From Candidatus Micrarchaeota archaeon (lineage in GTDB: Archaea > Micrarchaeota > Micrarchaeia > Anstonellales > Bilamarchaeaceae), in assembly GCA_016212505.1 (NCBI GenBank), contig JACRGB010000046.1, positions 1-61,173 on the forward strand: DNA of 61,173 nucleotides. The letters run 5' to 3'. Below the pieces are notes generated by a model. It had not been told where the DNA came from, searched no databases, and saw only the letters and a list, made by a program, of their open reading frames with translations. The translations under genes and the position numbers were made by a program. Of the stretch, positions 1 to 48,480 are shown piece by piece; the stretch's first letter is position 1; each line of letters begins with the position of its first letter.

Positions 1-295
1 AAAAGTTGGATCGTATATGTTGTGATGTCAGGATCAATTAGTTGATCCTGAGCATGCTCGTGATCTTTGCGAAGATCACGACATCGACGCTTCGATCACG
101 ACAGTCAAGAAACGCCATGCGTTTCTTGCCATCCTCGATCAGCTTATTGTTGATCGAGAATAATGGCTGCGCGCTGCGGCAATTGCGTTCCGAAACGCAA
201 TTGGTCGCCTTCGAAGGCGACCGGCTGCCCCGGGGCAGTCGCCGCATATTGGCGGCGCAGCCCGACGTGCCGCTGCTTGAAGCAATTCTACAGAG
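1..295. repeat. Tandem hairpin/palindrome array, family B copy 1 (probably continues past the window start)
   Basis: Stem-loops: TCAGGATCAA-ttag-TTGATCCTGA (28-51), CGTGATCTT-tgcg-AAGATCACG (59-80), CAAGAAACGC-cat-GCGTTTCTTG (106-128), CAATTGCGTT-ccga-AACGCAATTG (180-203). Perfect palindromes at 203-222 and 225-238. Positions 83-132 match the reverse complement of 7400-7450 except in one loop. Confidence 0.9.
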
Positions 296-296
296 C

Positions 297-1475
297 TCAC
301 TTTTCCACCTTGCCGCGTTTTCTAAGCAAATCCACATATAAGCGCACGGTCATATCTGCACTTTTTTCTATAGAATATTTTTCTGAGCTTCTTTGGCCCT
401 CCTTGCCCATTTTCGAGCGTAAATCATCATCCTCGAGCAGTTTTTCCATTGCTTTTGCAAATCTAGGGATATCGCCCGGACGGATCAGCAAACCTGTTTT
501 TCCATGTTCAATTACTTCTATAGGACCAAGCTTGCGGGCGGCAATTACCGGAATCCGGCAGTGCATTGCCTCAACAAAGGTAAGCCCGAAAGTCTCGCTA
601 TCCGATGCCGAAACGAAGACATCTGCAGAGCGATATGCCGCTCCAAGTTCAGATGATGGGACAAATCCAGTAAATACAATATTTTTTATCCCCAAGGCAT
701 GGGCAAGTTTCCTGAATTCTGAAACGTAAGGCCCGCCGCCAACTATAAGAAGAATGCGGTCAGGTGCTTCGACCAGGCTAAAAGCGTGTATGAGCTGGTC
801 GATCCGTTTCTCAAAACTTATCCTGCCCACATAAACAATGGTTTTCTTATTTTTGGGATTATACTTGCGCCTAAAAGCGCGGATTTGGTCGGCAGTGCAG
901 TCAAATTTGGAAAACTCGATCCCATTAAGCAGTAGAAGCGCGTTTTTGAGCCCGTAAGAGTTAAGTTCATCCACAAGCTTTTGTGTAGGCGCGGTGACGA
1001 TATCTGCCATTGTAAATGCGTGTTTTATGAGTTTTTTTACGGTGTAGTTGCTCAGTTCCTTAAGGAATGAAGGCAATTTGCGGTTCAAGAGGTGCGGAAC
1101 ATAATCCGGAAAATGGGTGTGGTAGGTTATTATGCAGGGCAGATTATGCTGCTTCGCCGCTATGACCCCCTGAAGGGCAAGAAGTACCGGTGCATGCGAA
1201 TGGACCAGATCAGGATTCTCTTTTTTTAGCAGGTCAGAGACTTTTTTGTAATTTATCGAAGAAATCCGATAACCACTATAGAATGGGAATGGTATCGAAT
1301 GGATCCAGTATATTTTGAAATTTTCCGAAAGCTGCTCCACCTTAAATGAGCCGCCACTTGGGGCAAAAAGTACGATCTGATGGTCCTTGGACAGTAATTT
1401 TATCAGGTCAACAAGGTAGGACACCACGCCATTTGTCTGTGGCAGGTAGGTATCAGTAAAGAAGGCGATTTTCAT
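297..1475 (-). CDS. Glycosyltransferase family 4 (GT-B)
   Basis: MKIAFFTDTYLPQTNGV N-terminus, HSHAP, YVGRISFEKRID, and the ETFGLTFVEAM GT4 signature. Start moved to ATG 1475 because the ORF-track extension runs into a hairpin array. Confidence 0.93.
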   Translation of the reverse strand: MKIAFFTDTYLPQTNGVVSYLVDLIKLLSKDHQIVLFAPSGGSFKVEQLSENFKIYWIHSIPFPFYSGYRISSINYKKVSDLLKKENPDLVHSHAPVLLALQGVIAAKQHNLPCIITYHTHFPDYVPHLLNRKLPSFLKELSNYTVKKLIKHAFTMADIVTAPTQKLVDELNSYGLKNALLLLNGIEFSKFDCTADQIRAFRRKYNPKNKKTIVYVGRISFEKRIDQLIHAFSLVEAPDRILLIVGGGPYVSEFRKLAHALGIKNIVFTGFVPSSELGAAYRSADVFVSASDSETFGLTFVEAMHCRIPVIAARKLGPIEVIEHGKTGLLIRPGDIPRFAKAMEKLLEDDDLRSKMGKEGQRSSEKYSIEKSADMTVRLYVDLLRKRGKVEK

Positions 1476-1488
1476 TTTTTCACCCAGA

Positions 1489-1740
1489 AAAAATGGAAAA
1501 ACTTGAACTTGTTCAAGCTGATTTTCATTTTCGACACCTCGAGGACAAAGTTTCACAAACTTTGTCCGCATTGGAATTATACAAATTCCAATACAAGGAC
1601 AAATTTCGCAAAATTTGTACGGTGGAAAAATTTAACGAATTTTTCCATAAGCGAACAAAGTTCGCTACTATTTGGAAATTCTCATAGAATTTACAAGACA
1701 AAAATGGAAAGATTTGAATGTAATTCAAATAGATTTTCAT
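1489..1740. repeat. Tandem hairpin array, family A copy 1, bounded by ~40-nt imperfect direct repeats
   Basis: Hairpins GGACAAAGTTT-cac-AAACTTTGTCC (1543-1567), ATTGGAATT-ataca-AATTCCAAT, ACAAATTT-cgca-AAATTTGT, GGAAAAATT-taacg-AATTTTTCC, GCGAAC-aaa-GTTCGC. Flanks AAAATGGAAA..TTGAA..TTCAA..GATTTTCAT at 1489-1528 and 1700-1740. Confidence 0.88.
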
Positions 1741-1743
1741 CTC

Positions 1744-2895
1744 TCAGCCCCCAGTTGATGAATTGGAAACATTTGATGAGTTTGAGTTAATTCCCGGAGC
1801 AGGGACAGGTTTGACTGCCGAAGCGCTCAGGCAGTTCTGGACTTTGGCACTATCAATAACCTTAGCGCAATAAGTCTTATCCTTGTATGCGCCTGCAAGT
1901 TCAATATAGCAATCGTCTTTGAAAGAGGAATCAGTTATTCCATCGCAGAGGCTAACATCCTTAGTTAGCGGAACCAACGAAACAAAGCAGCGGTCTTTTT
2001 TCTTATCAAGAAGAGTACAGACATTTTTATTTTCCAATTGCAATGCTAATTCCAAAACGCATCCTTCCCGCTCAGCCTTAACGTAGCAGCCAAGAATATT
2101 CTGCTCGTCCTGTTTTTCCAGGAGAAGGGTGGGGACAACATCTGCTGTTGCATTAGCAGGAGGCACAATTGGATCCAAACCAGTGGTCTTGAATTCTAAA
2201 ATCTTGTAGTTTGATGTGTGGGAGAGGTTATTGAGCGAGTAGGATAAGGACCGCACGTATTTGCCGCTTTTTGGGTCAAGACAAAGGGAAACGTTGAATG
2301 TTTTTGGTGAATCCGGGCCGATCCCGAACCGTACCGCTTCATCGTTTGTAAGGTTGGTATAATCCACCAAATAATTGACTTCGCTGCAAGGCGTACCATC
2401 GATGGTGATATTGGCGATGTCCGGACTTAACAACACATATCTGTTGTTCAGTATATACTCGAAGTTGGTCTTATGGATGGCGATATTATCCTTGCTCAGG
2501 AATATGGCGCGCAATGATTGTACGTAATTTGACAGTGAGGGGGTGGATGAGCCTGAACCACAGACATCTGGTCCGCCATAGGCCATGCAGATAACCGTAT
2601 CATTGTCAGTAAAATAGATTTTTTGTTTTGAAAGCGGATTCTCGATCGATAAGAAACTTAAATTGCCCAATTTTTCGCTTTTGTAAAGCGTGGTGTAGCC
2701 GTCAGAGGATTGGCTAAAGGAGTAATAGTAGTTTGTCGCATCGGACCCAAATTCCATTGCCTTCATTACAATAGCGAGAGCCGCATCGGTGCTCTTGGGC
2801 CCGGGTTTTGGGGCGCTCGAGGTATAAGCAATATAAATTGCAAAGGCCGCCACAATTAAAGTTACTGCTAATAAGATTTTTTCGGTGTTCTCCAT
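1744..2895 (-). CDS. Membrane-anchored extracellular protein with C-terminal Cys-rich helical repeats
   Basis: N-terminal TM/signal segment (ILLAVTLIVAAFAIYIAY), many N-x-S/T sequons, and repeated C..L/I....D.C(F/Y) units near the C-terminus. Family not recognised. Confidence 0.8.
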   Translation of the reverse strand: MENTEKILLAVTLIVAAFAIYIAYTSSAPKPGPKSTDAALAIVMKAMEFGSDATNYYYSFSQSSDGYTTLYKSEKLGNLSFLSIENPLSKQKIYFTDNDTVICMAYGGPDVCGSGSSTPSLSNYVQSLRAIFLSKDNIAIHKTNFEYILNNRYVLLSPDIANITIDGTPCSEVNYLVDYTNLTNDEAVRFGIGPDSPKTFNVSLCLDPKSGKYVRSLSYSLNNLSHTSNYKILEFKTTGLDPIVPPANATADVVPTLLLEKQDEQNILGCYVKAEREGCVLELALQLENKNVCTLLDKKKDRCFVSLVPLTKDVSLCDGITDSSFKDDCYIELAGAYKDKTYCAKVIDSAKVQNCLSASAVKPVPAPGINSNSSNVSNSSTGG

Positions 2896-3066
2896 AACGA
2901 TCTACCCAATTATCTAATCAAGTATTTATCCAATTATCTTCCTAATTACCTGCAATTACCTGCCAATAGTAAGCTAGTACTACACAAATACGGTTTATAA
3001 GGATTTTCGATGTATATAGCACCAACTAAATTCTTAAAAATTAAAAAAGAGTGTGAATACTATGGC

Positions 3067-3146
3067 TTTGAAATTTTGAAAAAATTTCAAATAGGACAAA
3101 TTTTCGCAAAAATTTGTCCGCATGGTAAATTATCAAATTTACCATA
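3067..3146. repeat. Tandem hairpin array, family A copy 2
   Basis: TTTGAAATTT-tgaaa-AAATTTCAAA, GGACAAATTTT-cgc-AAAATTTGTCC, ATGGTAAATT..AATTTACCAT. Same GGACAAA..TTTGTCCGCAT module as 1543-1571. Confidence 0.82.
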
Positions 3147-3185
3147 CAATAAAAATTTATTATTAAAATATGAGGTGAAATTTTT

Positions 3186-3620
3186 ATGGCTATGTGGGAT
3201 TCTAAAAACAACAAGGAAACAACCGTTAGTGCTACTGGTTCTGAAGTAAAAAGTACCAATCCATTCTCAATTCAGCTGTCTTTCTCGCCGCTAAGGCTTT
3301 CGTCAAATAGGATGAATTCGATTAATCTGGTTGTCAGGGTCAAAAACATTTCAAACGAAGCGCAGCTAGTATCTGTTGATGCCATGCTTCCAAGAAATTG
3401 TATGCTTGGATTCGACCAAGCATGCATAAACAAAACAACTGAAAAGCGCAGCGGTGAACTGGCACCAGGTGCGTTCAAGGACGTCCAGATCGAGATCTGG
3501 GCAAATAACCAGACCAAAAGCGGAAATTACCCAGTGGAAGTAACTGCTTTTGCCCATTATGTCGGATATGAAAAAGTAATTGGATACATTAAGAAGGGGA
3601 CTTCACTGCGAGTAGTTTGA
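3186..3620 (+). CDS. Hypothetical protein, probable Ig-like beta-sandwich
   Basis: 144-aa ORF after GAGGTGA RBS. Alternating beta-strand pattern (LVVRVKN, VQIEIWA, YPVEVTA). Confidence 0.75.
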   Translation: MAMWDSKNNKETTVSATGSEVKSTNPFSIQLSFSPLRLSSNRMNSINLVVRVKNISNEAQLVSVDAMLPRNCMLGFDQACINKTTEKRSGELAPGAFKDVQIEIWANNQTKSGNYPVEVTAFAHYVGYEKVIGYIKKGTSLRVV

Positions 3621-3660
3621 AATTTTTTTAAAAAGTTGGAGTCTAACCGAACACAATCAG

Positions 3661-3921
3661 TTACCCCGGCAATAAGTTCTTCAGTTCGTCAATCGCTTTT
3701 GCAACCGCCATCCCCTTATCGGTTAATTTTACCATCCGCTTGTTTCCTTTTGGTTCAATAGTCAGCAGGCCTTTTTCAGCAAGTAGCGGAATTAACTGAC
3801 TAATATATACGTAGGTGGTATCGCTTTGTTTTGCCAGTTTTGACATATGCCAACTACTTTCAGGTTCGCGCAAAAGCAGCATTATTTTACAGGGTTTGGG
3901 CCGGGCAAATATTGAAAACAT
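3661..3921 (-). CDS. Winged helix-turn-helix DNA-binding protein
   Basis: 86 aa; MSKLAKQSDTTYVYISQLIPLLAEKGLL..VKLTDKG wHTH pattern. Confidence 0.8.
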   Translation of the reverse strand: MFSIFARPKPCKIMLLLREPESSWHMSKLAKQSDTTYVYISQLIPLLAEKGLLTIEPKGNKRMVKLTDKGMAVAKAIDELKNLLPG

Positions 3922-4086
3922 GAACTAAACAGGACAGTATAATTTATAAAAACAGCACGCAAAACCTCGTAAAAATGGCATTTTTCGACGATAGCTTTAT
4001 AAAACATATCTCGGAAATACAGCTCGCGTCAATAAACAAGAGGCGCGAGTTAACCCGATAAAAAGGGATAAATGGAAGGTGACTTA

Positions 4087-4299
4087 ATGGCAGATAAAGT
4101 AGGAAGTGAAAAAATCTCAACGGAAAATGGATACCTATACTACGTCGGAAAAGACGGATATGTTTGGGCATCCCCAATGAAGCACAACAAGAAAGGAAAG
4201 AAGAAGAAAGTCGGCTCTGAGAAGATAGGAAAAGAAAAAGGATACATGTACTTCGTCAGGGGCGGATACGTTTACAAGACAAAAATGAAAAACTCATAG
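4087..4299 (+). CDS. Small very basic protein with internal duplication (possible nucleic-acid-binding protein)
   Basis: GAAGGTGA RBS before ATG 4087. Two repeats, KVGSEKISTENGYLYYVGKDGYVW and KVGSEKIGKEKGYMYFVRGGYVY, joined by a Lys run. Followed by a long T-tract. Confidence 0.8.
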   Translation: MADKVGSEKISTENGYLYYVGKDGYVWASPMKHNKKGKKKKVGSEKIGKEKGYMYFVRGGYVYKTKMKNS

Positions 4300-4300
4300 A

Positions 4301-4345
4301 AGTTTTTCTCTTTTTTTTCTTTTTATTTTCTTTTTTGATTTTTAT
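4301..4345 (+). terminator. T-rich intrinsic terminator region
   Basis: Several T5-T7 tracts directly after the stop codon at 4299. Confidence 0.55.
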
Positions 4346-4374
4346 TTATTCTTGATTTATTTAAGAACACTAAA

Positions 4375-5088
4375 TTATTCCGAATTTTGATGATCAAGCT
4401 CTGGGGCAATCAGGCGGGTTTTAACCTTTTCAGCAAAAGCAGGGTCGCTAATAAAGTCGATCGGCGCGCTCCTTGCATGATGACTTTCGACAATAAATGG
4501 GATAGCGTCAGGATCGAATTCCATCAGAGATAGCAAGTGGTTAAGACTTGAATGGAAAGAAGGGTCGTGAGATTGCCATTTGCCATCGACCTGGACTTCA
4601 ACCCACCAGTGACTATCATCCTCATCATCACCGAAAAAATGCGGGTGGCCCACCACACGAGCAGGCATCGAGTTTGCTCGGCAGACTGCTACCATTATAG
4701 AAGCACGATCGAAACACTGGCCGAGCCCGGAAACAAGCGCTTCGCTGGGGCTATCAGTAGCTGAGACAGGGTTACTAAACTGAGTAACAGCAAAAGCAAT
4801 TGAAAGGGTAAGTTCCGAAAGCCCCTCAACACTAAGACGCCGAATTGAGGATGGAAGGTTTGCAGTTTCAGGAAATGCATAACCTGGGACTGTGAGATGA
4901 CCATCCAATGCATCCATCACGCTATGAAATTGATCTGGGTCTGCCAGTTTTACAAGATGGGAACGAATCACATACGTATCTTCCTGGCGGACTGCGTAAA
5001 TCATCCTTTGGCCAATATCCCGGCCGACTGCAGCAGAAACATGATTGAAATCAAGTGAGGTTAAGCCATCAAATTTGCTTTGACACAT
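4375..5088 (-). CDS. Transglutaminase-like (Cys-His-Asp) domain protein
   Basis: GQCFDRASIMVAVCRANSMPARVV ... HWWVEV ... WQSHDPSF. Start codon uncertain. Confidence 0.8.
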   Translation of the reverse strand: MCQSKFDGLTSLDFNHVSAAVGRDIGQRMIYAVRQEDTYVIRSHLVKLADPDQFHSVMDALDGHLTVPGYAFPETANLPSSIRRLSVEGLSELTLSIAFAVTQFSNPVSATDSPSEALVSGLGQCFDRASIMVAVCRANSMPARVVGHPHFFGDDEDDSHWWVEVQVDGKWQSHDPSFHSSLNHLLSLMEFDPDAIPFIVESHHARSAPIDFISDPAFAEKVKTRLIAPELDHQNSE

Positions 5089-5323
5089 TGTAAACCAAAG
5101 TCTATTGGTTGAACCAGGAGGAGGTTGTCTTAAAAGTCGTTGCAGGTTGTCTTTTGTGTTTAGAATAGTTTAAAATCCATTGCAACACAGAGGAGCCAAT
5201 AATTTTAAAGCCAATCCTTCATTATCTTTCTTCTATTCTAAGCATGAGACATACTCATGGTTTTGGGGTGAAGCACTTTTGCCGTCAGAAAAGAGATGAC
5301 AAAAGGGCTCTTGAGGTGAATGA

Positions 5324-5710
5324 ATGCGAATTGTAATTAGTGAAGCTACTGGAAAGAGCTATCAGGCTGAAATTCCGAAGGACAAGGAAGCTATGATAGC
5401 AGGAAAGAAGATAGGCGAAAAGATAGAGGGAAACCTCGTTGGCGCAGCAGGATACATGCTGCAGTTAACTGGTGGAAGCGACGGCAGTGGATTCCCTATG
5501 AGGGAGGAAGTTGCAGGATCAGCCAGAAAATCAATATTGACCAGTGATGGCGTCGGTATGAAGGCAGAACGAAAGGGCGAGCGGAAGAGGAAAAATCTAA
5601 GGGGAAACACGTATTCTTCTGAAATCATGCAGGTTAATGCAAAAGTCGTAGCTGGAGGAGCAACACCACTTGAGCAACTCTTTCCAAAGAAGGAAGCAGT
5701 GAAGAAATGA
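5324..5710 (+). CDS. rps6e: 30S ribosomal protein S6e
   Basis: LTGGSDGSGFPMR and GERKRKNLRGN motifs. Confidence 0.96.
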   Translation: MRIVISEATGKSYQAEIPKDKEAMIAGKKIGEKIEGNLVGAAGYMLQLTGGSDGSGFPMREEVAGSARKSILTSDGVGMKAERKGERKRKNLRGNTYSSEIMQVNAKVVAGGATPLEQLFPKKEAVKK

Positions 5711-6900: not shown

Positions 6901-7004
6901 TTTAAGAAATTTGAATTCAAGAAATCACATTGACTGAACTAAGGAAATAGGGTGGAAAAATAAAAGTAATCTCTGATGCTTATGGAGGAAGAGTAAAAAG
7001 AGAT

Positions 7005-7376
7005 TTGCATGCAGAACTTCGAAGATTTAGAGATCTTCTTGAGCGTGATGGAAACGGAAACCCTACTTTTGTTTTAGGTCATCAGGCAGAAAAGATGGTT
7101 CAGGCAGTTATGAATCGCGGTAATGAGTCAGCCAGAAAGTTATTCGAAGCAAATTTATTGACTAGAGATCTGGCACTTAGTGAACCTGAATCAGGTTTGT
7201 TAACCGTTTCAAGTGCAAAAAATACTTTTGTTGATGCATTAAATGCCTTGGAAACGGAAGGAATCGTTTCTACGATAAGAAGGGTATTGACGATAATACC
7301 AAAAGTATTTGCTGCTCTGGCAGAAGCAGGATGCGGATATGAACCTAGTTCTGGAGAAAGGGAAATGGATAATTAA
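7005..7376 (+). CDS. Hypothetical protein
   Basis: 123-aa ORF filling the gap after eif2g. TTG start uncertain; no motif recognised. Confidence 0.5.
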   Translation: MHAELRRFRDLLERDGNGNPTFVLGHQAEKMVQAVMNRGNESARKLFEANLLTRDLALSEPESGLLTVSSAKNTFVDALNALETEGIVSTIRRVLTIIPKVFAALAEAGCGYEPSSGEREMDN

Positions 7377-7381
7377 ATGAA

Positions 7382-7693
7382 TGTGACCGAAGAGACCCCA
7401 TGGCAAGAAACGCGCTAGCGTTTCTTGACTGTCGTGATCGAAGCGTCGATCACAACACTGCAAGCACTCGCCATTTGATGGCTTGTTCATGGCCGAAGTG
7501 TCGGCCATGGCACACACGCGAAATGCAGGGCATTTCGCTCGTGCGGTCGCTTCGCGACGTGGGGTACTTTGAGAACGACGATTCGTTCTCAAACCCTCAG
7601 GAACATTGGTAATGTTCCTGAAGTCCCTCATTCGGTCACAACTTTCCAAATTGGATCGCCGCAAGCGGCGGGGTATTCGACCCAATTTGGAAA
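7382..7693. repeat. Tandem hairpin array, family B copy 2, MITE-like with 10-bp terminal inverted repeats
   Basis: TGTGACCGAA (7382-7391) / TTCGGTCACA (7631-7640) enclose hairpins at 7404-7427, 7434-7453, 7488-7509, 7518-7538, 7568-7593 and 7597-7621. A further 12-bp stem follows (7643-7654/7682-7693). Confidence 0.9.
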
Positions 7694-7796
7694 TAAAATA
7701 ATACCTCATTTTTAAAATCTTCTTCAGAATATTAATTATCGAATTTTGAGTAAAATCAGAACTCTAGACTGTGAACCGGGAACAGAAAACATTACT

Positions 7797-7937
7797 GCTG
7801 GGGTCGCCTAGCCCGGTATGGCGGCAGGTTGCTAGTGCCTTTTAGTAAAAGGCACCCCAAAACGGGGTTGCTATTGCTAAGGCATGTGGAAACCTGTTGC
7901 GCGTGAGCGTTCGGGAGTTCAAATCTCCCCCCTAGCG
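7797..7937 (+). tRNA. trnS: tRNA-Ser(GCT) with 57-nt intron at 37/38 (7835-7891)
   Basis: Acceptor GCTGGGG/CCCTAGC, anticodon stem GCAGG/CCTGT, anticodon GCT at 7831-7833, long variable arm GCGC-GTGA-GCGT, T-arm GGGAG-TTCAAAT-CTCCC, discriminator G, no encoded CCA. Confidence 0.93.
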
Positions 7938-7997
7938 AACGAAGTGAGCTGGGGGGGTACTTGAACGAATCGTCGTTCAAGAAGACCCCCCTAGCGA
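7927..7997. repeat. 12-bp duplication of the tRNA-Ser 3' end around a hairpin insert
   Basis: CCCCCCTAGCGA at 7927-7938 and 7986-7997. Between them lie GCTGGGGGGG and TTGAACGA-atcg-TCGTTCAA. Confidence 0.8.
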
Positions 7998-8034
7998 CCT
8001 ACTTTTTGTTATTAATTTTAGCCCAACTAAAAAA

Positions 8035-8196: not shown

Positions 8197-8298
8197 AAGA
8201 GTAATCACCCTGAGTCAAATTTTCATTTTCGGCTTAAACCCTCTCGTTAGCAAACTATTCGTCACTACGCCAACCGAACTAAACGCAGTTCGGTAGTT

Positions 8299-9087
8299 TC
8301 ACCCAAACGCGCTTTGGCCAAGTGGGACAAAATACATCCGATCCATACTAGTGTTGGTTTCCTCAAGAATCCCGTTAACCACAAAATGCTTACCGAAGAG
8401 GTCTTTTATGGTGTCGCCAGTTGTACCAAAGACTTTTTGATCTTGTAACAGCTTCGCCTGCTTATAACCAAGAATGATCGGGTAATAGACATTTCCTCCA
8501 AGATCATGGGTTGAGTAGCCCTCAGTGCCCCCTTCAATAAAACTGAAACGGCCAAGGAAATTATCTGATTGTTCCAACCGGAAAAACAAGTTTGGTAGGC
8601 CGTCTTTGGACATCATCACATATGCACGATTAGATTCCCCGGAAACAGCATCAAATTGTTCAGAACCAAGGAATACCAACTCATCAGCAAGATCATTTCT
8701 TTTTTGAAGAACTCCCTCTATGGTGGTGTTTATGCCAAAATAATTTACAAGATGGTTCCCGACCTTGGAAAATTTAGCCTGTTTTTTGAGGTTCGCTGCA
8801 GCTTCACTGCCCAGAACAATAGAGTTTGATTCTGGGATTGGGTTTCCCTGGGAAGTTTTAAGCTCAGCCAACTTGTTTGATTTGGCACTGACAAAAATAT
8901 TTAACGAGCCGTCAGGGCCAGATACTGTTTTGAATTTGGCGCCATCAAAAAGCCCTCCGGCCTCCTTTTGGCCTATTGCCAAGTTTTTTGGGCCGAGAGC
9001 AAAATAAAGCCCAGAAAGCAGGAGCATAAAAATAACACTAAATGCAATCGCACCCTTATTTTCCGAAATAAATTCCTTAAGTCCCAT
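8299..9087 (-). CDS. Membrane-anchored hypothetical protein with two similar extracellular subdomains
   Basis: N-terminal TM. (I)VLG..A..L......GVL......D motif occurs twice, loosely MacB-periplasmic-like. Directly downstream of copA. Confidence 0.7.
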   Translation of the reverse strand: MGLKEFISENKGAIAFSVIFMLLLSGLYFALGPKNLAIGQKEAGGLFDGAKFKTVSGPDGSLNIFVSAKSNKLAELKTSQGNPIPESNSIVLGSEAAANLKKQAKFSKVGNHLVNYFGINTTIEGVLQKRNDLADELVFLGSEQFDAVSGESNRAYVMMSKDGLPNLFFRLEQSDNFLGRFSFIEGGTEGYSTHDLGGNVYYPIILGYKQAKLLQDQKVFGTTGDTIKDLFGKHFVVNGILEETNTSMDRMYFVPLGQSAFG

Positions 9088-9106
9088 AATAACACCTGCA
9101 ATTAGC

Positions 9107-14628: not shown

Positions 14629-15114
14629 ATGGACATCAGAAAGCAGGCACTAGTTGGAATGACAATTGTCTCAGTATTTGTTTTTTTGGTTACTGTTTTG
14701 GTGGTTGTTTTCTCCCTTTATTCACAGGGGCAAGAAGTACCGGATTTACTAAAACCCTTCCTGGCATATCATGTCCAATTCATGATAGTAATGGGTCTTT
14801 TCGGGGTCGGATCGGGTTTAGCACTTTATACCATACTTAATTCAACACTCGAAAAACAGAAACAAATAGTAAAAACCAACAGCCAGATAATTATGAAATT
14901 CCTTGCAAAAGATGAGCGGGAAGTGGTCTCACTCCTCTTATCAAAAGATGGACGAACTACTCAAAGCGAAATTGCAAGCTTACCAAATATGAGCAGGTTG
15001 AAGGCTCATCGAATAGTTAAAAAACTTGAAGGCCAGGGAATAGTGCATGTTGAAAAATACGGGAAAATCAACATGATAAGGATAATTGATGAGTTGATGG
15101 AACTTGAAAACTAA
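14629..15114 (+). CDS. Membrane-anchored wHTH regulator
   Basis: Two N-terminal TMs with YHVQF, then TTQSEIASLPNMSRLKAHRIVKKLEGQGIVHVEKYGK. Divergent from the copper cluster. Confidence 0.82.
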   Translation: MDIRKQALVGMTIVSVFVFLVTVLVVVFSLYSQGQEVPDLLKPFLAYHVQFMIVMGLFGVGSGLALYTILNSTLEKQKQIVKTNSQIIMKFLAKDEREVVSLLLSKDGRTTQSEIASLPNMSRLKAHRIVKKLEGQGIVHVEKYGKINMIRIIDELMELEN

Positions 15115-15460
15115 AACTGATAAAAGTAATAAATATAAGATTAAGGAATTTGAACGCAGAGTTTACGCAGCATGCGCTAAAATCCCAAAAGGCAAAGTTT
15201 CCACTTATTCTGCAATCGCCCGCGCAATTGGAAAACCTGGATCGGCAAGGGCAGTTGGAAATGCATTAAACAAAAACCCACACTCATTCAATCTCAAAAC
15301 CCAAGACGCAAAACACAAGACACTTGTTCCTTGCCATCGGGTGGTTCGGTCGGATGGTTCGGTTGGCGGATATGCGCATGGAACTAAAGCAAAGATTGCG
15401 ATACTAAAAAAAGAAGGAGTGAAAATAGTGGCTGGGCGAGTAAGGTTAAAGAAAAATTAA
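15104..15460 (+). CDS. ogt: Methylated-DNA--protein-cysteine methyltransferase
   Basis: IPKGKVSTY, ARAVGNALNKNP, active-site PCHRVV. Confidence 0.93.
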   Translation: MKTKTDKSNKYKIKEFERRVYAACAKIPKGKVSTYSAIARAIGKPGSARAVGNALNKNPHSFNLKTQDAKHKTLVPCHRVVRSDGSVGGYAHGTKAKIAILKKEGVKIVAGRVRLKKN

Positions 15461-28864: not shown

Positions 28865-29854
28865 ATGCAATATCAGGCTCAAAAAGCAACCTCACCGATA
28901 AGTACCCTACAATTTAATGCCCGAGTACTCAATGCAAGGGATTTTGGGTTATTAGGCACAACTGATGGGATGATCGCAGCGATAAGAAAATTTCTTGCAA
29001 TAAATGAGCCTGAAAGGGCCCGAATTATTAAAATGGCCGTGACGTCCAAAGTAATAGAGGATGAGCACCCGTTTTCATACCGGTCGCTTTCATTCAAATT
29101 AGGTGCAATGGAAAAACTTCACGCGCTTCTTAGGCAAAATGGCCTACCATTACTTCCTAACCCCAGGACAATGAATAGTGGCGAGGAGAGCACCGAATGC
29201 ACATTTGAGGGAAATACATACATATTCAGTGAACCATTCGGATCAACAGGCAATTATTGTGCAACCTTTAGTGCCGCCTATGGAATAGAAGAAGATCAGG
29301 GGCTTCAAGTTCATGCAGTTTTTAATGGGGATAAGAATGAACAGGTGGTTGCTTCTGAAAAAGCAGCCGCAATGGTTGAATTTGCATGCAAGCTTGGATT
29401 AACTTATGATGTTAAGCACCTGATGTTGATCTTAGATGGGATGGATTTTGAGCTTAAGAGGATGAAGTTATGGGCCGAAGCGGCAATAATTAGCAGGTTT
29501 GGCAAAAAAGTCATATTAGTTGCTGCAGGAAATCTGCCAGTTTTGCTAGTTCGGGGGCGGGATTTGGGTATGCTCACTCAAATGACGCATCCACTTGGCC
29601 AGGTAAATGGTGATAAAGATCATTTTGGAAAAATGATAGAGGTTCAGGAAAAAGACGCCATTGTACTTGCGAGCAGAGGTTTTGTGAGGATGGGTGATGA
29701 GGAAGCAGTAGCAGATAAAATAGCCAGAAGGGTTAGCAAAGGATCAAGTATGATGGGTTTTGGTGGAGGATGGCTCCTAACGCGCGGGCAACTTATCGAA
29801 CGAAAACTTGATGAAGGATCCGGGGACGCGACAACAATAATCAGCTTCTTTTAA
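28865..29854 (+). CDS. Degenerate PPM/PP2C-like protein
   Basis: VHAVFNG, LVAAGNLPVLLVRG, IVLASRGF and GDATTII align by eye with PP2C motifs (aVxDG, vanvGDsr, llcSDGl, DNxTvi), but with Asp changed to Asn/Arg. Confidence 0.55.
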   Translation: MQYQAQKATSPISTLQFNARVLNARDFGLLGTTDGMIAAIRKFLAINEPERARIIKMAVTSKVIEDEHPFSYRSLSFKLGAMEKLHALLRQNGLPLLPNPRTMNSGEESTECTFEGNTYIFSEPFGSTGNYCATFSAAYGIEEDQGLQVHAVFNGDKNEQVVASEKAAAMVEFACKLGLTYDVKHLMLILDGMDFELKRMKLWAEAAIISRFGKKVILVAAGNLPVLLVRGRDLGMLTQMTHPLGQVNGDKDHFGKMIEVQEKDAIVLASRGFVRMGDEEAVADKIARRVSKGSSMMGFGGGWLLTRGQLIERKLDEGSGDATTIISFF

Positions 29855-30738
29855 GATTTGAACCCGGAGAGCCTGGATAAAATCAGTGGAAATGCAATCG
29901 TTGCATCGCAATCTACAGTAACGAATTTTGATTCTTCTTTTAGTTTTCCCCAGGAAATTGCTTCTTGTGTCCTGGCACCACTCAAACTACCATCCCAGGG
30001 ACCTGAGGTTGTAACATAGACAGCATAATCCAATCCGCCCCGTAGTATGTTAACAGCAATTGTATGGTGTTTTGATATTCCACCGCCCAAAACAATCGCG
30101 GCGGTCTTATCAGCATTAAGCACCAGCTGCGCCAGATCATTCATGTCTTTTGTGACATCAATGCCAAAATCTTTTTTCTTCTGCTTGAAAAAATAAGCCT
30201 GCAAGCCAATTGCCGAGTCGGTTATTCCGGGGCAGAAAACCGGAATCTTGTTTTTGTTAGCCCAATACAAGAATGAGTCGGATTTTGTTTTTTCGCCAAT
30301 TTTTCTTGCAATCTGGGAGGGCGATAGGATTTTTTCTTTTTCATAAAGTTCGGAAAATACATCCTGCATGAATTCTTCCAGATAAACATAGCATTCATTT
30401 GGAACCAGAATATTTCCTATTCTGTTCATGCTTTTTTGATGGAGAGCCTTATCATCCATCATAAAGTCTCCAAGCCCGTATTTCTTAGCAGATTTAATCA
30501 GGTCATGATCCAAACTTCCGCCAGCAGTTATTATGCAATCGATGAATTTTTCCTTGCATAATTCAGCAAAAAGGCCACGCAAGCCGGACGCAACCATATT
30601 CGAAGTAAACGAGAGGAAAATTGTTGCTTTTTCCTTTTTCATTTTCTTTATTATTTCAACTGCCCGTGATATTTGGGTTGCCTGGAAGCCGGTTGAGGTA
30701 AAGTCGAAATCTCCAGTTGATAAGTCCTTTATATTCAT
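29851..30738 (-). CDS. dys: Deoxyhypusine synthase
   Basis: GFQA, FTSNMVASG, RIGNILVP, GGGISKH, DGSLSGARTQEAISWGK. Confidence 0.95.
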   Translation of the reverse strand: MNIKDLSTGDFDFTSTGFQATQISRAVEIIKKMKKEKATIFLSFTSNMVASGLRGLFAELCKEKFIDCIITAGGSLDHDLIKSAKKYGLGDFMMDDKALHQKSMNRIGNILVPNECYVYLEEFMQDVFSELYEKEKILSPSQIARKIGEKTKSDSFLYWANKNKIPVFCPGITDSAIGLQAYFFKQKKKDFGIDVTKDMNDLAQLVLNADKTAAIVLGGGISKHHTIAVNILRGGLDYAVYVTTSGPWDGSLSGARTQEAISWGKLKEESKFVTVDCDATIAFPLILSRLSGFKS

Positions 30739-31968: not shown

Positions 31969-33060
31969 TCATTTCCCCAGTCTTTCAAGGACTGCTTTTA
32001 CAATCATTGGCCAGGCAATTGTTGCATCATCGAAAACTTCGACATACTTGCCACCTTCATTTTGCGGGACGATTTTACCCCAGCTCACTCCTTCGCTGTA
32101 GGTGCAACCGGATAATCCGCCCCAGTGAACAGGCTCTGGACAAATCCTAACTGCATAGGAATATCTTTTGAAATCGCCGCCATGGCCTATCCGGCTGTTG
32201 ATCAGGTCAAGATAGCAAGCACCTTGCTGGGCCCAATTTCTTGGAACGCCACCGCCAATTGTAAAGATACCGAGTTTTTTCGCGCTTCGCACCCGCTCGG
32301 TAAAGTGTTCTAAATCATAAAATGGGTTGAACATCAGGGGTTTTTTGCCTGATTCGACCCGTCTCCGATTATGTAGTGCCACATCCAAACCAACTTCTGA
32401 ATCAGTAAATGCAGGAATGTAAACAGGCACCTTTTTTTCATAGGCTGATTTGAGGATCCCCCTGCCTTTTGTTTTTTTAGCCAGATATTCTCCAAGAAGA
32501 TGGTTGATTTTTTGGCTGTATAAGACTTCATCATCCTTTGCCTTATCCAGAACCTCATCAACGATAAAAGATACATCATCCAGGTTTTTTTCTAATTCAA
32601 GCGTATCATAAACCCGATCGTACCCTTTTTCATAAAGCTCCTCATCTTCCATGTTCCAGGTATATTTGAAATGCCGCATTCCAACCGATTCGACAAATCC
32701 GTGTGCCTGGAGCGCGCCGGTACTGACAATTGCGTCAATTAGCCCATGGTCCATCATATCGCAGATGACCAAGCCCATTTTCGCAATGGTCATGGCACCA
32801 GAGAGTGTCAGGACCTTGAAACAATCCTTATCTTTTACCATTGCCTCAAGCACATCAGCTGCTTCACCAACATTTCGGGCTCCAAAAGCGCAGTTTTTCA
32901 TTCCCTTGACTAAATCGTCGACGGTTTTTACTTTGGATAAGTCCAATGGCTCTAACGGTTCGTAATGGTCCGAGTATCCAGTACCGAGCTGGCCGTGTTT
33001 TCGCTTATTTTCATCAGGATTATTTTGCATTTTTTCATGCGAATGATGTTTGTCTTTCAT
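31969..33060 (-). CDS. Deoxyhypusine synthase family protein (second paralogue)
   Basis: FGARNVGEA, TLSGAM, RVYD, PAFTDS, GGGVPRNW, WGGLSGCTYSEGVSWGK. Confidence 0.92.
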   Translation of the reverse strand: MKDKHHSHEKMQNNPDENKRKHGQLGTGYSDHYEPLEPLDLSKVKTVDDLVKGMKNCAFGARNVGEAADVLEAMVKDKDCFKVLTLSGAMTIAKMGLVICDMMDHGLIDAIVSTGALQAHGFVESVGMRHFKYTWNMEDEELYEKGYDRVYDTLELEKNLDDVSFIVDEVLDKAKDDEVLYSQKINHLLGEYLAKKTKGRGILKSAYEKKVPVYIPAFTDSEVGLDVALHNRRRVESGKKPLMFNPFYDLEHFTERVRSAKKLGIFTIGGGVPRNWAQQGACYLDLINSRIGHGGDFKRYSYAVRICPEPVHWGGLSGCTYSEGVSWGKIVPQNEGGKYVEVFDDATIAWPMIVKAVLERLGK

Positions 33061-36595: not shown

Positions 36596-36862
36596 GGGGT
36601 TATGGCGTAAGTGTTACCAGTTTTGAGTCTTGAGTTTTGTTTTTACAAAACGAAGCAAAACGGAAAACTCGAAACTGTGCACAGCGTGGCCAGGTAGCGC
36701 GGCAGTCTCCAGATCAACTCTCGCCTAAAACGGCGAGAAATTTAGCCGCGAAAACTGCATGTCGGAGTTCAAAAGAGTTTTCAGTCCTGTGTTTTGAGTC
36801 TTGACGAATCGTTCAAAACCCAAAACGGAAAACTGGAAACGCGGAAGTTCTCCGTGACCCCA
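36596..36862 (+). tRNA. trnW: tRNA-Trp(CCA) with three introns (about 36610-36688, 36713-36752, 36774-36848)
   Basis: Joined exons give 73 nt: GGGGTTATGGCGTA|GCCAGGTAGCGCGGCAGTCTCCAG|AACTGCATGTCGGAGTTCAAA|TCTCCGTGACCCCA. Acceptor GGGGTTA/TGACCCC, D stem GCGT/GCGC, anticodon stem GCAGT/ACTGC, T stem CGGAG/CTCCG. Intron 1 boundary was placed to keep A14; its BHB is weak. Confidence 0.88.
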
Positions 36863-36878
36863 ATTTTTAGGTGAAAAA

Positions 36879-37682: not shown

Positions 37683-37779
37683 GATTAAGATTTTTGCTCT
37701 TATAATTTTCCAAAGTCCAACAGATTTAAAAACTCTGCCATGCACAAATTAATATGAACTTTTTCTCCCGAGTGATGTT

Positions 37780-46806: not shown

Positions 46807-47982
46807 ATGATAAAGCTTGAGCTGGACCGCAAAAAGCGCCTGATAATGGTTAAGGAGCCATCTGATGTCTCCTCATTGCAGAACGGTTTTTACGGCCAGA
46901 TGAAAAAAGGAATAATTTACCTATCCCCAGAAGAAGCGTTGTATGTGATGGATATTCGGAATGGAAAATGCTACGACGATGCTGGCAACCCGTTTACATT
47001 CAATGACATTGCCTCGCTATTTCTCAAAAACAAAAAATTGCTCGCCCGCTGCCTCACATATAAGGATTGGCGCGATAAAGGGCTGGTGCTTCGGTACATT
47101 AGCGAAGCAGAAGGTGGGTATGGCAGGACAGTTCTCAAAAAATACACGAGTGCGCCATTTAGGTTAGATGCTTTTGGTTTTGAAGGGTTATTTTTTCCCA
47201 ACGACCTTATTACAATGGTTGATGACCAAACGGTCGGGAAAGAGCTCTATGAGCGGTATTGGATCGGGCAGTTTGGAACCTATAAGGCATCCCATCGCGG
47301 GACAGTAGCCAAATATGATATTTATGAGACTATTTTCCTGCTAAAAAGCGGAAACCTCATGCTTAAGGGCTGTAACCTTGCAACCGTAGAGAAAGTTGCA
47401 AAGAAAAGGATCAAGTTCTTTGAGGATATTTACCTTGTTTACGAAGACTGGCGATCCCGCGGGTATGTGATTAAGACCGGCTTTAAGTTCGGGACGCATT
47501 TTCGGATTTATTTCCCTGGGGCTTCGCCAGTCCGAAGCGAAGACGAATGGATGCACTCGAAGCACGTTATCCATGTTTTCCCGAGGAAGCATAAACAGCT
47601 GATTTCGGAATGGGCCCGTGCGATCAGAGTGGCCCACTCGGTCAAGAAAACGTTCATCCTCGCGATTCCCGGAAAGAAAAAAGAAATCAAACTTAGCAAA
47701 ACCAGATCGCGGCTCGATTTTTTACTATACCATAGGAAGAAGGGCGGTATCGAAACGCCAAAAGACGGTTCGCCAAAATACCTGATGTATTCCCTGACCG
47801 AAGACGAATACATTGGTGGTGAAGAATTGTACGAAGCATTGGCAGAGTGCAAGCAGTTTGGTTTGGAAATGGTGGTTGCAATTAGTGATCGGGAGAGCAG
47901 CGTAACATATTATATAATTAAGGAATTGGAACTTCCTGGAAGCGAATATGAGTACTATGAGATTGAGTGGGTTCAGCCTTAA
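46807..47982 (+). CDS. endA: tRNA splicing endonuclease (multi-unit, epsilon-type size)
   Basis: LSPEEALY, YKDWRDKG, YEDWRSRGYVIKTGFKFGTHFRIY, HSKHV, AHSVKK (Tyr/His/Lys triad); 391 aa from ATG 46807 after GAGGTG. Confidence 0.93.
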   Translation: MIKLELDRKKRLIMVKEPSDVSSLQNGFYGQMKKGIIYLSPEEALYVMDIRNGKCYDDAGNPFTFNDIASLFLKNKKLLARCLTYKDWRDKGLVLRYISEAEGGYGRTVLKKYTSAPFRLDAFGFEGLFFPNDLITMVDDQTVGKELYERYWIGQFGTYKASHRGTVAKYDIYETIFLLKSGNLMLKGCNLATVEKVAKKRIKFFEDIYLVYEDWRSRGYVIKTGFKFGTHFRIYFPGASPVRSEDEWMHSKHVIHVFPRKHKQLISEWARAIRVAHSVKKTFILAIPGKKKEIKLSKTRSRLDFLLYHRKKGGIETPKDGSPKYLMYSLTEDEYIGGEELYEALAECKQFGLEMVVAISDRESSVTYYIIKELELPGSEYEYYEIEWVQP

Positions 47983-48041
47983 CTGAACCCACTGCCCACG
48001 AAAACCTGCGGGTTTTCATGGTTGAATGGGTTCAGCCGTAA
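47963..48041. repeat. Duplicated endA 3' end around a hairpin insert
   Basis: TTGAGTGGGTTCAGCCTTAA (47963-47982) vs TTGAATGGGTTCAGCCGTAA (48022-48041). Inverted copy CTGAACCCAC at 47983-47992. Confidence 0.8.
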
Positions 48042-48107
48042 GAGTTTTGAGTTTTTGTGTTTAGGGTTTCGAACAAATTGATATGAAACAAAAATGGAGT
48101 TGATAGT

Positions 48108-48377
48108 ATGGTTAGAGCAAGTCACATATTGGTGGAAAATGAGCAATTGGCAAAAAAAATAAAGGGTGAGATACAAAGTGGTGCGGACTTTGCAAAAATG
48201 GCGAAAAAATATTCCATTTGCCCGAGCAAAGCCCAGGGCGGGGACCTTGGAGATTTCGGTAAGGGCCAGATGGTTAAGGAATTTGAAGATGCAGCATTTT
48301 CACTTCCCATTGGGATAGTATCGAACCCTGTGAAGACCGAATTTGGATATCATTTGATTATGGTCACTAAAAAGTAA
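48108..48377 (+). CDS. ppiC: Parvulin-type peptidyl-prolyl isomerase
   Basis: [47 protein letters not shown]. Confidence 0.95.
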
Positions 48378-48380
48378 AAA

Positions 48381-48480
48381 CAAGGACAAATTTGAAAAAT
48401 TTGTCCGTGGAGAAATTCGGAAGAATTTCTCCTGTAGCGAACCGATTTTCGCTACGAATTGGAATATACAAATTCCAATA
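48381..48480. repeat. Tandem hairpin array, family A copy 3
   Basis: GGACAAATTT-gaa-AAATTTGTCC, GGAGAAATTC-ggaa-GAATTTCTCC, GTAGCGAA-ccgatt-TTCGCTAC, ATTGGAAT-atacaa-ATTCCAAT. Collinear with about 1593-1680. Confidence 0.88.

Follow-up and report, generated by a model that had tools for sequence, protein, structure and literature searches.

Gain and loss of related hairpin modules in Micrarchaeota tRNA introns, tRNA flanks and intergenic arrays, as seen from a groundwater genome and its close relatives

Fungal mitochondrial double-hairpin elements and Rickettsia palindromic elements are small selfish hairpins of reduced genomes that insert between genes, in introns and RNA genes, and in-frame in coding sequence, and we know of no mechanism that mobilises them. 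The modules described here come from the groundwater genome of a tiny symbiotic archaeon of the Micrarchaeota, in which one whole contig of 61,173 nt (the window) was analysed. They share with the double-hairpin elements the two-hairpin module as a unit, but the lineages are unrelated, there is no sequence relationship to either element type, and the permissive site here would be the EndA-spliced tRNA intron. Bacterial REP, BIME and REPIN sequences, which are mobilised by RAYT Y1 transposases (PMC3733652, PMC3184786), are likewise non-coding, multi-copy extragenic palindromes arranged in mosaic clusters, and their movable unit, a hairpin doublet of ~60–100 nt, resembles the two-hairpin modules. 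In contrast to these, the many unrelated stems of the window fit no single consensus and have no GTAG/CGTC tag in common, and modules of this archaeal host also lie inside tRNA introns; none of the 60 ORFs scanned in the window is a RAYT or Y1 (HUH) transposase.

tRNA intron transposition has been described in Thermoproteales (2010, Mol Biol Evol 27:2233, as cited in PMC3239211). That system and the present one have in common related introns in different tRNAs, mostly at non-canonical positions, gains that are recent relative to close relatives, and a broad-specificity endonuclease in the host; they differ in that the present host belongs to the DPANN/Micrarchaeota and has an epsilon2 EndA, and in that its introns also grow from within by hairpin-cassette insertion, some modules having paralogues in arrays and tRNA flanks. 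The literature searched yielded no description of intron growth by hairpin cassettes or of such array and flank paralogues. ARMAN-2 (Ca. Micrarchaeum acidiphilum; PMC3239211, PMC3488258, PMC12397907) belongs to the same phylum and has a homologous EndA and non-canonical tRNA introns, and PMC3239211 covers the enzyme and the intron positions, not hairpin repeat families; the words ‘repeat’, ‘intergenic’ and ‘mobile’ do not occur in it. Caldiarchaeum subterraneum (PMC3293823) resembles our case in that foreign DNA that inserted over a short span of evolution is linked to both intron gain and tRNA-end duplication, but the agent there is a 1.8-kb recombinase-encoding element, whereas the inserts here are non-coding and 50–60 nt long.

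The tRNA genes, their inserts and the splicing endonuclease gene are:

tRNA-Ser, 7797..7937, forward strand, one intron (7835-7891, 57 nt) in the canonical 37/38 position (aragorn -i)
tRNA-Ser 3' insert, 7938..7996, forward strand, 59 nt
tRNA-Trp(CCA), 36596..36862, forward strand, three introns
Trp intron 1, 36610-36688, forward strand, 79 nt, D-loop
Trp intron 2, 36713-36752, forward strand, 40 nt, 37/38
Trp intron 3, 36774-36848, forward strand, 75 nt, T-loop 59/60
tRNA-Arg(TCT), 41141..41439, forward strand, three introns
Arg intron 1, 41158-41256, forward strand, 99 nt
two-hairpin cassette, 41177..41237, forward strand, ~60 nt inside Arg intron 1, with TATA on both sides
Arg intron 2, 41279-41347, forward strand, 69 nt
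Arg intron 3, 41369-41424, forward strand, 56 nt
tRNA-Arg 3' insert, 41440..41518, forward strand, containing GAACGAAGTG and ending in a second CGGGCCCG copy
endA, 46798..47982, forward strand, three-unit epsilon2-type tRNA splicing endonuclease, PF01974 and PF02778 (Pfam)

All three tRNA genes are real: tRNA-Ser is identified by aragorn -i and an orthologue, the Trp(CCA) cloverleaf is recovered by aragorn once the three inserts are removed, and the Arg exons, which are collinear with those of the intron-poor L245 and L246, equal orthologues with fewer or shorter introns. Removing the inserts restores a canonical cloverleaf, as in archaeal EndA-spliced tRNA introns. A strict 3-4-3 BHB scan gave mostly spurious candidates, and for most junctions it returned no clean motif. 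For tRNA-Ser, aragorn -i called the anticodon GGA; it is most likely GCT, and the L248 orthologue is an intron-less tRNA-Ser(GCT). The homologous intron of L249 differs by a compensatory change in its stem. The EndA aligns over its full length with the ARMAN-2 epsilon2 EndA 4fz2 (residues 6-394, E = 1e-132), and enzymes of this type accept non-canonical introns (PMC3239211, PMC3488258). A broad-specificity EndA, as presumed in the preliminary description of this DNA, is therefore present in the host in the form of a full-length ARMAN-2-type epsilon2 enzyme, and its statement that the window holds no transposase also agrees with our scan, in which none of the 60 ORFs had a transposase, integrase or RT domain. 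The hairpin sequences themselves are very diverse, whereas the work of one sequence-specific transposase would leave no such diversity.

Five intergenic hairpin arrays, to which no strand is assigned, make up 1.75% of the window:

array B1, 1..296, GC-richer hairpins set back to back, truncated where the contig ends
array A1, 1473..1743, AT-rich hairpins between a GT4 gene and the next gene
array A2, 3060..3150, three A-type hairpins
array B2, 7382..7693, hairpins within ~9-bp terminal inverted repeats, GTGACCGAA / TTCGGTCAC
array A3, 48380..48480, four A-type hairpins after a parvulin gene

That these arrays are genuine is evident from the 77 perfect hairpins with a stem of at least 7 bp, compared to 21–24 in shuffles. 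Only two significant pairs were listed in a window-wide all-vs-all search. In it, B1 and B2 share a block of 51 nt at 94%, in which 83-132 pairs with 7400-7450 in reverse complement, and A1 and A3 share 40 nt at 87.5%. Several array parts are multi-copy in the source metagenome, where B1 reaches a summed depth of up to 235 vs ~17, the ends of B2 have a depth of 110–145, and A3 48395-48445 is covered by several other contigs, one of which skips a 49-nt two-hairpin block. Other B2 copies lack 57-60-nt two-hairpin blocks or a 218-nt block. Array copies in the metagenome thus differ by two-hairpin blocks of 49, 57, 59 and 60 nt, and as this is the same unit as the insert in Arg intron 1, these block-wise differences support shared cassettes.

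The preliminary description had connected introns and arrays through five motifs, the coordinates of which are all exact. AAAAG[T/C]TGGATCGTATAT occurs at 1-18 in array B1 and at 41190-41207 in Arg intron 1; AAAGTTTCACAAA at 1547-1559 in array A1 and at 41385-41397 in Arg intron 3, as part of an A1 hairpin, GGACAAAGTTT-CAC-AAACTTTGTCC (1543-1567), that gives a 17/18 match to this intron; and TTGA(A)CGAATCG(TCG)TTCAA at 7961-7980 after tRNA-Ser and at 36801-36816 in Trp intron 3. The remaining motifs carry less weight. AAAACGG occurs seven times on the forward strand, five of these in tRNA introns or flanks, and eight times on the reverse strand, and it does not have the weight assigned to it, since it stems from a family of heptamer-repeat introns and from Trp introns 1 and 3 being paralogues with common heptamer-repeat arms. 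GAACGAAGTG does follow both tRNA-Ser and tRNA-Arg, but with only two copies in the window (7937 and 41488) it is weak evidence, and its start at 7937 is the discriminator G of tRNA-Ser. More generally, the motifs reported after these two tRNAs are present, but they belong to inserts on the 3' side of the tRNA, in which the tRNA end is duplicated, and not to introns.

Sharing between introns and arrays exceeds the shuffled null that had been proposed as a check. With 605 nt of introns and 3' inserts set against 1071 nt of arrays, 14 10-mers are shared, compared to 2.5 in dinucleotide shuffles and 2.0 at random loci, and none of 500 dinucleotide shuffles reached the observed value at k of at least 10. 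Under a hairpin-preserving null, introns plus flanks still share 14 with the arrays vs 1.1 (0/1000), and true introns alone share 7 vs 0.8 (4/1000). Three of the best inter-locus matches of intron and flank DNA lie in arrays, and the true intron–array link in the window consists of two 17/18 nt matches and one gapped match. A strict cross-genome ‘hairpin word’ test gave a weak result (3 shared vs 0.8 expected).

The decisive evidence comes from orthologous loci in eight relatives (L242–L249), a comparison that the preliminary description had also called for and that shows gain and loss of hairpin modules from one close relative to another. The cassette in Arg intron 1, which folds into two hairpins (-30 kcal/mol), is missing from the otherwise collinear intron of L242, a 94% relative with identical Arg exons. 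Both of its hairpins match B1, TATAT linker included: hairpin 1 (41190-41207) matches B1 1-18 at 17/18, and hairpin 2 (41206-41238) has its best whole-window match at B1 130-163 (6/1000, hairpin-aware null), where the B1 copy spans 131-163. This 60-nt indel is without outgroup polarity, and read from the alignment alone it could possibly be a deletion in L242. L242 and L243 each have a Trp intron 1 of ~21 nt, compared to 79 nt in the window, which therefore records an insertion in the lineage of the window. Introns at one site are also swapped between families among relatives; at the site of Trp intron 3, L242 carries a member of another family, and L243 and L245 have no intron. The Trp and Arg T-loop introns are absent in the more distant relatives L243–L246. 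An independent case is found in L245, where a module of Arg intron 1 (8273-8310) recurs just outside the tRNA (8401-8438; 38 nt, 87%, E = 7e-8), and the stem of the two copies differs by the compensatory change CGC/GCG to CCC/GGG. All three resolved nested insertions are at a hairpin-loop edge. The arrays, too, are absent from orthologous spacers. At the B1 position, L248 and L249 have spacers of 10 nt or 0 nt; at the A1 position, the spacer has 38 nt in L248 and 100 nt in L249, both without hairpins; and A3 is absent in relatives, with spacers of 0–91 nt. Comparison with close relatives thus offers a rare direct view of the growth and turnover of archaeal tRNA introns.

Inserts at gene ends add copies of local sequence. 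The tRNA-Ser insert comprises GAACGAAGTG, an inverted acceptor-end copy, the hairpin CTTGAACGA-ATCG-TCGTTCAAG and a second CCCCCCTAGCGA copy, and is paralogous to B2 7559-7593 (GGGGTACTT and GAGAACGA-CGAT-TCGTTCTC). L249 has a similar insert of ~140 nt on the 3' side of its tRNA-Ser, with GAACGACGATTCGTTC matching B2 at 16/16. The loop of this GAACGA hairpin occurs in both orientations (B2 and L249 vs the Ser insert of the window), which fits behaviour at the DNA level, although the match joins an array with a tRNA 3' flank and not with an intron. An analogous duplication, of GCCGGGCCCG, is found at the tRNA-Arg end in L244. Like the insert at the tRNA-Ser 3' end, that at the 3' end of endA repeats its local target sequence, once inverted and once direct, and the endA layout (X, X', hairpin, X) is kept in L244 and L245 with different sequences.

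Whole introns are also related across tRNAs and genomes. Arg intron 3 of the window matches Trp intron 3 of L242 (43 nt, 84%, E = 3e-5) and, inverted, Arg intron 2 of L247 (E = 0.006), the 37/38 intron of tRNA-Ser matches the D-loop Arg intron 1 of L243 (28 nt, 89%, E = 3e-5), and Trp introns 1 and 3 of the window are related to each other. Homologous introns in different tRNAs and positions, together with intron presence and absence between close relatives, are the signs by which transposed introns of the Thermoproteales type are recognised. Contigs of the same depth in the source sample hold further copies of the intron families with tRNA-like flanks. In this sample, the high-copy families were seen only beside such flanks, and the high-depth array parts (B2 ends, B1 and part of A3) are in none of the introns of the window, so the two pools overlap in part only. 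The common hairpin pool proposed for introns and arrays therefore stands insofar as modules are related and are gained and lost, but the overlap is partial and involves few modules. The proposal that cassettes seed introns is not supported, since both resolved cases (Arg intron 1 and Trp intron 1) are additions inside a pre-existing short intron.

We consider it probable that this lineage carries multi-copy hairpin modules with fast turnover, which insert wherever this is harmless and enlarge existing introns, while intron families are exchanged in parallel. The movable unit would typically be one or two perfect hairpins of 25–60 nt in total, piling up as stacked arrays in intergenic spacers, at tRNA ends and in existing tRNA introns. 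The epsilon2 EndA presumably excises introns whatever their interior, which would make insertion in introns harmless and allow cassettes to inflate them. tRNA tolerance of inserts would thus depend on EndA splicing. Cassettes of 58–60 nt have probably swollen Arg intron 1 from 40 to 99 nt and Trp intron 1 from ~21 to 79 nt, and whole families (ArgI3, heptamer and SerI types) have probably been exchanged among tRNAs and positions, comparable to Thermoproteales. Spread would proceed through DNA, in many cases within or next to the loop of an existing hairpin, by an enzyme or replication process encoded outside this contig. It is conceivable, if doubtful, that new archaeal tRNA introns also arise from the array-building two-hairpin cassettes of ~50–60 nt and that the T-loop introns are newborn. 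A cassette landing in a tRNA loop would bring its own helices and could be removed by the epsilon2 EndA if a relaxed BHB forms; candidates are the T-loop introns of 56–75 nt, found only in the window genome and the 94% relative. If true, this would be a concrete, testable route of intron arrival, a route that the literature still calls open.

The perfect stems invite a different explanation, in which hairpins are made locally by replication template switching (snap-back copying) with no moving element, arrays and swollen introns marking sites that tolerate such errors. One switching event would suffice for a perfect palindrome or for a ‘compensatory’ change, and the explanation fits the near absence of wobble pairs and mismatches, the high sequence diversity, and the inverted and direct local copies in the tRNA-Ser and endA 3' inserts, which are unlike transposon cargo. 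As the whole explanation it is unlikely, given that distant loci share sequence beyond stems (B1/B2, A1/A3, Arg intron 1/B1), modules are multi-copy in the source sample and intron families are common to several genomes; local synthesis alone leaves dispersed copies unexplained, but may act alongside dispersal. Arrays and intron hairpins could also be functional RNA or DNA signals, such as sites for a hairpin-recognising protein, terminators or stabilisers, or pre-tRNA leader or trailer structures, that are alike through shared function and not mobility. The location of arrays at gene ends, the compensatory stem changes, the conserved endA 3' layout, and the GAACGA hairpin kept at the tRNA-Ser 3' flank of a relative with only ~79% eIF2-gamma identity would agree with this, but arrays missing from orthologous spacers are dispensable, their copies differ by whole blocks, and no Rfam family matches them, which makes this reading quite improbable.

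Spread at the RNA level, by re-insertion of excised RNAs through reversed EndA/ligase splicing followed by reverse transcription and recombination, would account for intron families at EndA-compatible sites in several tRNAs, in a lineage where EndA and tRNA introns are abundant. We regard it as very unlikely in view of modules in both orientations and in non-tRNA intergenic DNA, the lack of a reverse transcriptase in all 60 ORFs scanned, and an Asgard census (10.64898/2026.10.13.758758), which reportedly gave no support to the reverse transcription route. Finally, each match is short, an 18-mer with one mismatch is individually non-significant in the all-vs-all search, and 15- and 16-mers match unrelated bacteria by chance in large collections. 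Yet chance similarity of AT-rich, palindrome-rich sequence is the least credible of the explanations, with three restricted nulls exceeded, including the hairpin-preserving one, the matching hairpins sitting exactly in the block absent from L242, and the strong L245 case. MITE features are mixed, as other junctions have no consistent target-site duplication and no parent IS is seen in the window, but B2 has its terminal inverted repeats and the Arg intron 1 cassette is TATA-bracketed. Among the many unrelated stems, a single listed hairpin, at 48434 (GTAGCGAA...), begins with GTAG.

The window spans 61,173 nt, the full length of one contig in a metagenome-assembled genome of a groundwater Micrarchaeota (DPANN), and its aCPSF1 and eIF2-gamma have many Micrarchaeota homologues. 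ARAGORN with default settings and Rfam at gathering thresholds report zero tRNAs in it, because multiple introns block detection and not because the genes are absent. The tRNA genes, their introns (numbered 5' to 3') and the intergenic hairpin arrays are as follows.

Hairpin arrays, tRNA genes and tRNA introns of the window (positions on the forward strand)
1-296: array B1, hairpin cluster
1473-1743: array A1, hairpin cluster
3060-3150: array A2, hairpin cluster
7382-7693: array B2, hairpin cluster
7797-7937: tRNA-Ser, found by ARAGORN once introns are allowed
7835-7891: SerI, intron of tRNA-Ser (57 nt, canonical position 37/38)
36596-36862: tRNA-Trp(CCA), a cloverleaf once three inserts are taken out
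36610-36688: TrpI1, intron of tRNA-Trp
36713-36752: TrpI2, intron of tRNA-Trp
36774-36848: TrpI3, intron of tRNA-Trp
41141-41439: tRNA-Arg(TCT), exons match the orthologue in the relative L242 exactly
41158-41256: ArgI1, intron of tRNA-Arg
41279-41347: ArgI2, intron of tRNA-Arg
41369-41424: ArgI3, intron of tRNA-Arg
48380-48480: array A3, hairpin cluster

ARAGORN called the serine gene Ser(GGA) with an intron at position 35; this was overruled by the intron-less orthologue in the relative L248, a tRNA-Ser(GCT), by which the window gene is most likely tRNA-Ser(GCT) as well, with its intron at 37/38. Most intron junctions lacked a clean bulge-helix-bulge motif in a strict scan, whose candidates were largely spurious.

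Perfect hairpins with stems of at least 7 bp number 77 in the window versus 21-24 in shuffles. The arrays make up 1.75% of the window, and their stems contain almost no G·T or A·C wobble pairs. A contig from the Logan collection reaches 12 nt upstream of window position 1, and the 5' arm of the B1 hairpin at 1-18 would lie beyond the window; exact matches to proteins encoded near this left end led at most to a 1.5-kb contig. The preliminary description had proposed that tRNA introns and arrays share one pool of hairpin cassettes, and each of the five motifs on which it relied was found in place. Between 605 nt of intron and tRNA 3' insert sequence on one side and 1071 nt of array sequence on the other, we counted 14 common 10-mers (2.5 in dinucleotide shuffles, 2.0 in random window segments), and at k of at least 10 the observed sharing was reached in 0/500 trials. 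Under a stricter null, in which each array hairpin stays a perfect hairpin with the same arm composition, 1.1 common 10-mers are expected (14 reached in 0/1000). The true introns alone share 7 with the arrays versus 0.8 under this null (4/1000), and the tRNA 3' inserts alone share 7 versus 0.2 (0/1000), so that the module matches exceed the dinucleotide, random-segment and hairpin-preserving nulls alike. Among the best inter-locus matches of intron and flank DNA are TrpI1 with TrpI3, the tRNA-Ser 3' insert with B2 (16/16, opposite strand), ArgI1 with B1 (17/18), and ArgI3 with A1 (17/18). A strict search for 7-nt stem words common to different genomes gave a weak positive signal. Scans of genome contigs with a 15-mer of the ArgI1/B1 hairpin, and of metagenome contigs with the 16-mer GAACGAATCGTCGTTC, gave only chance matches in unrelated bacteria, none reaching into hairpin context, such patterns being too short for collections of this size; viral-contig scans gave two chance matches without a hairpin arm, and zero matches for a longer B2-type pattern. 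As far as is visible in these sequences, the intron and array pools appear to overlap in part.

Two of the proposed common modules read differently on closer inspection. AAAACGG is present where it was described; it is, however, a piece of a 7-nt repeat, NNRARAC, which builds the long arms of TrpI1 and TrpI3. Runs of at least three such units occur in these two introns, elsewhere in the window only inside an ogt-like gene, and never in shuffles. GAACGAAGTG likewise lies after both tRNAs as reported, but its two copies in the window are the only ones, both in tRNA 3' inserts, and the analogous inserts of relatives do not preserve it. In the ogt-like ORF (15104-15460), four in-frame heptamers (TCAAAAC CCAAGAC GCAAAAC ACAAGAC, 15294-15321) of the same family as those of TrpI1 and TrpI3 immediately precede PCHRV, the active-site motif of the O6-methylguanine methyltransferase domain. 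The Pfam match covers 92 residues on an 81-position profile, which points to an insert of ~11 aa; the heptamers may represent either a repeat inserted in frame and tolerated, or a small protein-gene intron of the EndA type. Heptamer-like repeats (GTTTTGA GTTTTTG TGTTTAG GGTTTCG ... GAAAC) are also found outside any tRNA, in the gap between endA and a parvulin gene (48041-48095).

Eight syntenic loci from related Micrarchaeota (L242-L249), found via aCPSF1 and eIF2-gamma homologues, provide before-and-after states. L242 (from assembly GCA_041643075.1), with 94% aCPSF1 identity to the window, has the same ArgI1 frame and lacks a ~60-nt block present in the window (41177-41237). This block folds as two perfect hairpins with TATA on both sides; hairpin 1 contains, at 41190-41207, the module that recurs in B1 (1-18), and the best match of hairpin 2 in the entire window is B1 130-163 (6/1000, hairpin-aware null). 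From these alignments, the block may be a gain in the window or a loss in L242. TrpI1 measures 79 nt in the window; in L242, and likewise in L243, which is more distant, it is ~21 nt long, and thus the extra 58 nt, a heptamer-arm hairpin inside the loop of a small intron hairpin, were inserted in the window lineage. Whole introns differ as well: the ArgI2 sequences of the window and L242 are unrelated, and tRNA-Trp has a T-loop intron of the heptamer family in the window and one of the window ArgI3 family in L242 (43 nt, 84%, E = 3e-5). T-loop introns are missing in L243-L246. The serine intron is missing in L248 and present in L249, with a compensatory stem change (GTGCC/GGCAC vs GCGC/GCGC), and the SerI module is also part of a tRNA-Arg D-loop intron in L243 (E = 3e-5). 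Orthologous spacers of relatives are without arrays: the B1 spacer between GT4 and DUF460 genes is at least 296 nt in the window and 10 and 0 nt in relatives, the A1 spacer 268 nt versus 38 and 100 nt, and the A3 spacer 148 nt versus 0-91 nt. The comparison of orthologous loci suggested in the preliminary description thus finds the ArgI1 block, the TrpI1 insert, the T-loop and serine introns and the arrays all variable between relatives. An intergenic spacer of L242 (9440-9760), in which ARAGORN finds no tRNA, contains pieces like window ArgI2 (TTTCGAGTTTCCGGTGTCCAG..., GAGCGAAGGGAA); given the best local alignment (26/33 columns identical, 1/500 shuffles, chosen post hoc), it is a possible relative of ArgI2 and a lead for further work.

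Logan contigs of the sole sequencing run found to contain window DNA (genome depth ~17x) indicate further copies. Extra contigs at about genome depth carry the ArgI3 module, flanked by T-arm-like sequence and then the start of a TrpI3-like intron; the ArgI2 core; and the TrpI3 heptamer module, next to flanks resembling a T-stem. A low-depth contig places an ArgI3-type module in a D-loop intron of another organism. Summed contig depth over array segments, to which several long, distinct contigs contribute and which is not a strict copy number, reaches 136 for A3, 235 for B1 and 110-145 for the B2 ends. Other array copies in the sample lack internal blocks of 49, 57, 59 or 60 nt, each a two-hairpin cassette, two of which are bounded at 7567-7625 and 48406-48454; arrays therefore vary by a unit like the one inserted in ArgI1. 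A minimal B element is 218 nt shorter. In the three resolved nested cases, namely ArgI1 (TGGC-TTTTTATA-GCCA), TrpI1 and the minimal B element (ACCCCA...TGGGGT), the extra DNA lies in or beside the loop of an earlier small hairpin. Insertion exactly one base ahead of a loop's 3' arm was considered as a rule for all cassettes and dropped, as D-loop introns do not fit it.

Modules also occur outside genes. In L245, a 38-nt ArgI1 module recurs directly 3' of the same tRNA (87%, E = 7e-8), with a compensatory change between the copies (CGC/GCG to CCC/GGG). In L249, a ~140-nt insert after tRNA-Ser closes with a second copy of the tRNA 3' end and carries GAACGACGATTCGTTC, identical to B2; in the window insert this stem encloses the loop in flipped orientation, and the preceding GGGGTACTT is also shared with B2. 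The 5' flanks of tRNA-Ser in L248 (7235-7277) and L249 (8180-8230) carry a copy of the first tRNA bases (GCTGGGGT), then a hairpin and an inverted copy (ACCCCA / CCCCCAG). They are the counterpart of the 3' inserts with their duplicated tRNA end, and tRNAs in this clade are thus flanked on either side by acceptor-stem mimics. The 3' end of endA (47963-48041) has the same layout as the tRNA-Ser 3' insert, in which the last codons are succeeded by their inverted copy, then a variable hairpin, and finally the last codons and stop once more in direct orientation. L244 and L245 keep this arrangement but not its sequence, and the spacing is 59 nt in the window, ~62 nt in L244 and ~54 nt in L245; the arrangement is missing in L243 and L246.

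On the best-supported reading of these sequence comparisons, this lineage has its own population of short hairpin modules, present in many copies and quickly gained and lost. In this reading the modules persist where they are harmless, in spacers, tRNA flanks and intron interiors, and enlarge existing tRNA introns; separately, whole intron families move between tRNAs and positions, as they do in Thermoproteales. Removal of module-bearing introns is predicted to fall to the tRNA splicing endonuclease EndA encoded in the window (394 aa), which aligns full-length with the three-unit epsilon2 enzyme of ARMAN-2 (PDB 4fz2, E = 1e-132), a type with broad substrate specificity (PMC3239211, PMC3488258). 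Since both orientations occur, copies lie in non-tRNA DNA and the stems are strand-symmetric perfect palindromes, we infer that the modules spread at the DNA level. That no transposase is visible, as initially remarked, holds for a domain scan, with none of the 60 ORFs in the window carrying a transposase, integrase or RT domain. Template switching during replication probably contributes, as the tRNA-Ser and endA 3' inserts carry inverted and direct copies of their local target, but it cannot alone explain the dispersed paralogues.

The link between hairpins and introns is a real feature, a variant of known selfish palindromic repeats combined with archaeal intron turnover. Already known are intron transposition (Fujishima 2010, as cited in PMC3239211), the epsilon2 EndA (PMC3239211, PMC3488258), and tRNA disruption driven by integration (PMC3293823), and a 2026 census of Asgard tRNA introns still calls the route of intron arrival open (10.64898/2026.10.13.758758). 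Neither hairpin arrays in Micrarchaeota nor tRNA introns built by hairpin repeats turned up in our literature search. The locus offers before-and-after states at the sequence level: an intron that has a 60-nt hairpin cassette in one genome and lacks it in another, a tRNA site whose intron family differs between genomes with 94% identity in an adjoining protein, and intron modules that have paralogues elsewhere than in the gene. Intron growth is thereby tied to a population of hairpin repeats in reduced DPANN genomes that had not been described before. Open to experiment are now the agent that mobilises these repeats, the question whether they enter tRNAs thanks to EndA tolerance, and the possibility that cassettes found new introns.

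Elsewhere in the window, two deoxyhypusine synthase paralogues (29851-30738 and 31969-33060) lie 1.2 kb apart, with a PIN-domain gene and a small ORF between them. Among the Micrarchaeota homologues of aCPSF1, a 1095-aa protein (P0123) matches the intein-type domains PF14528 and PF14890 and probably holds an intein.
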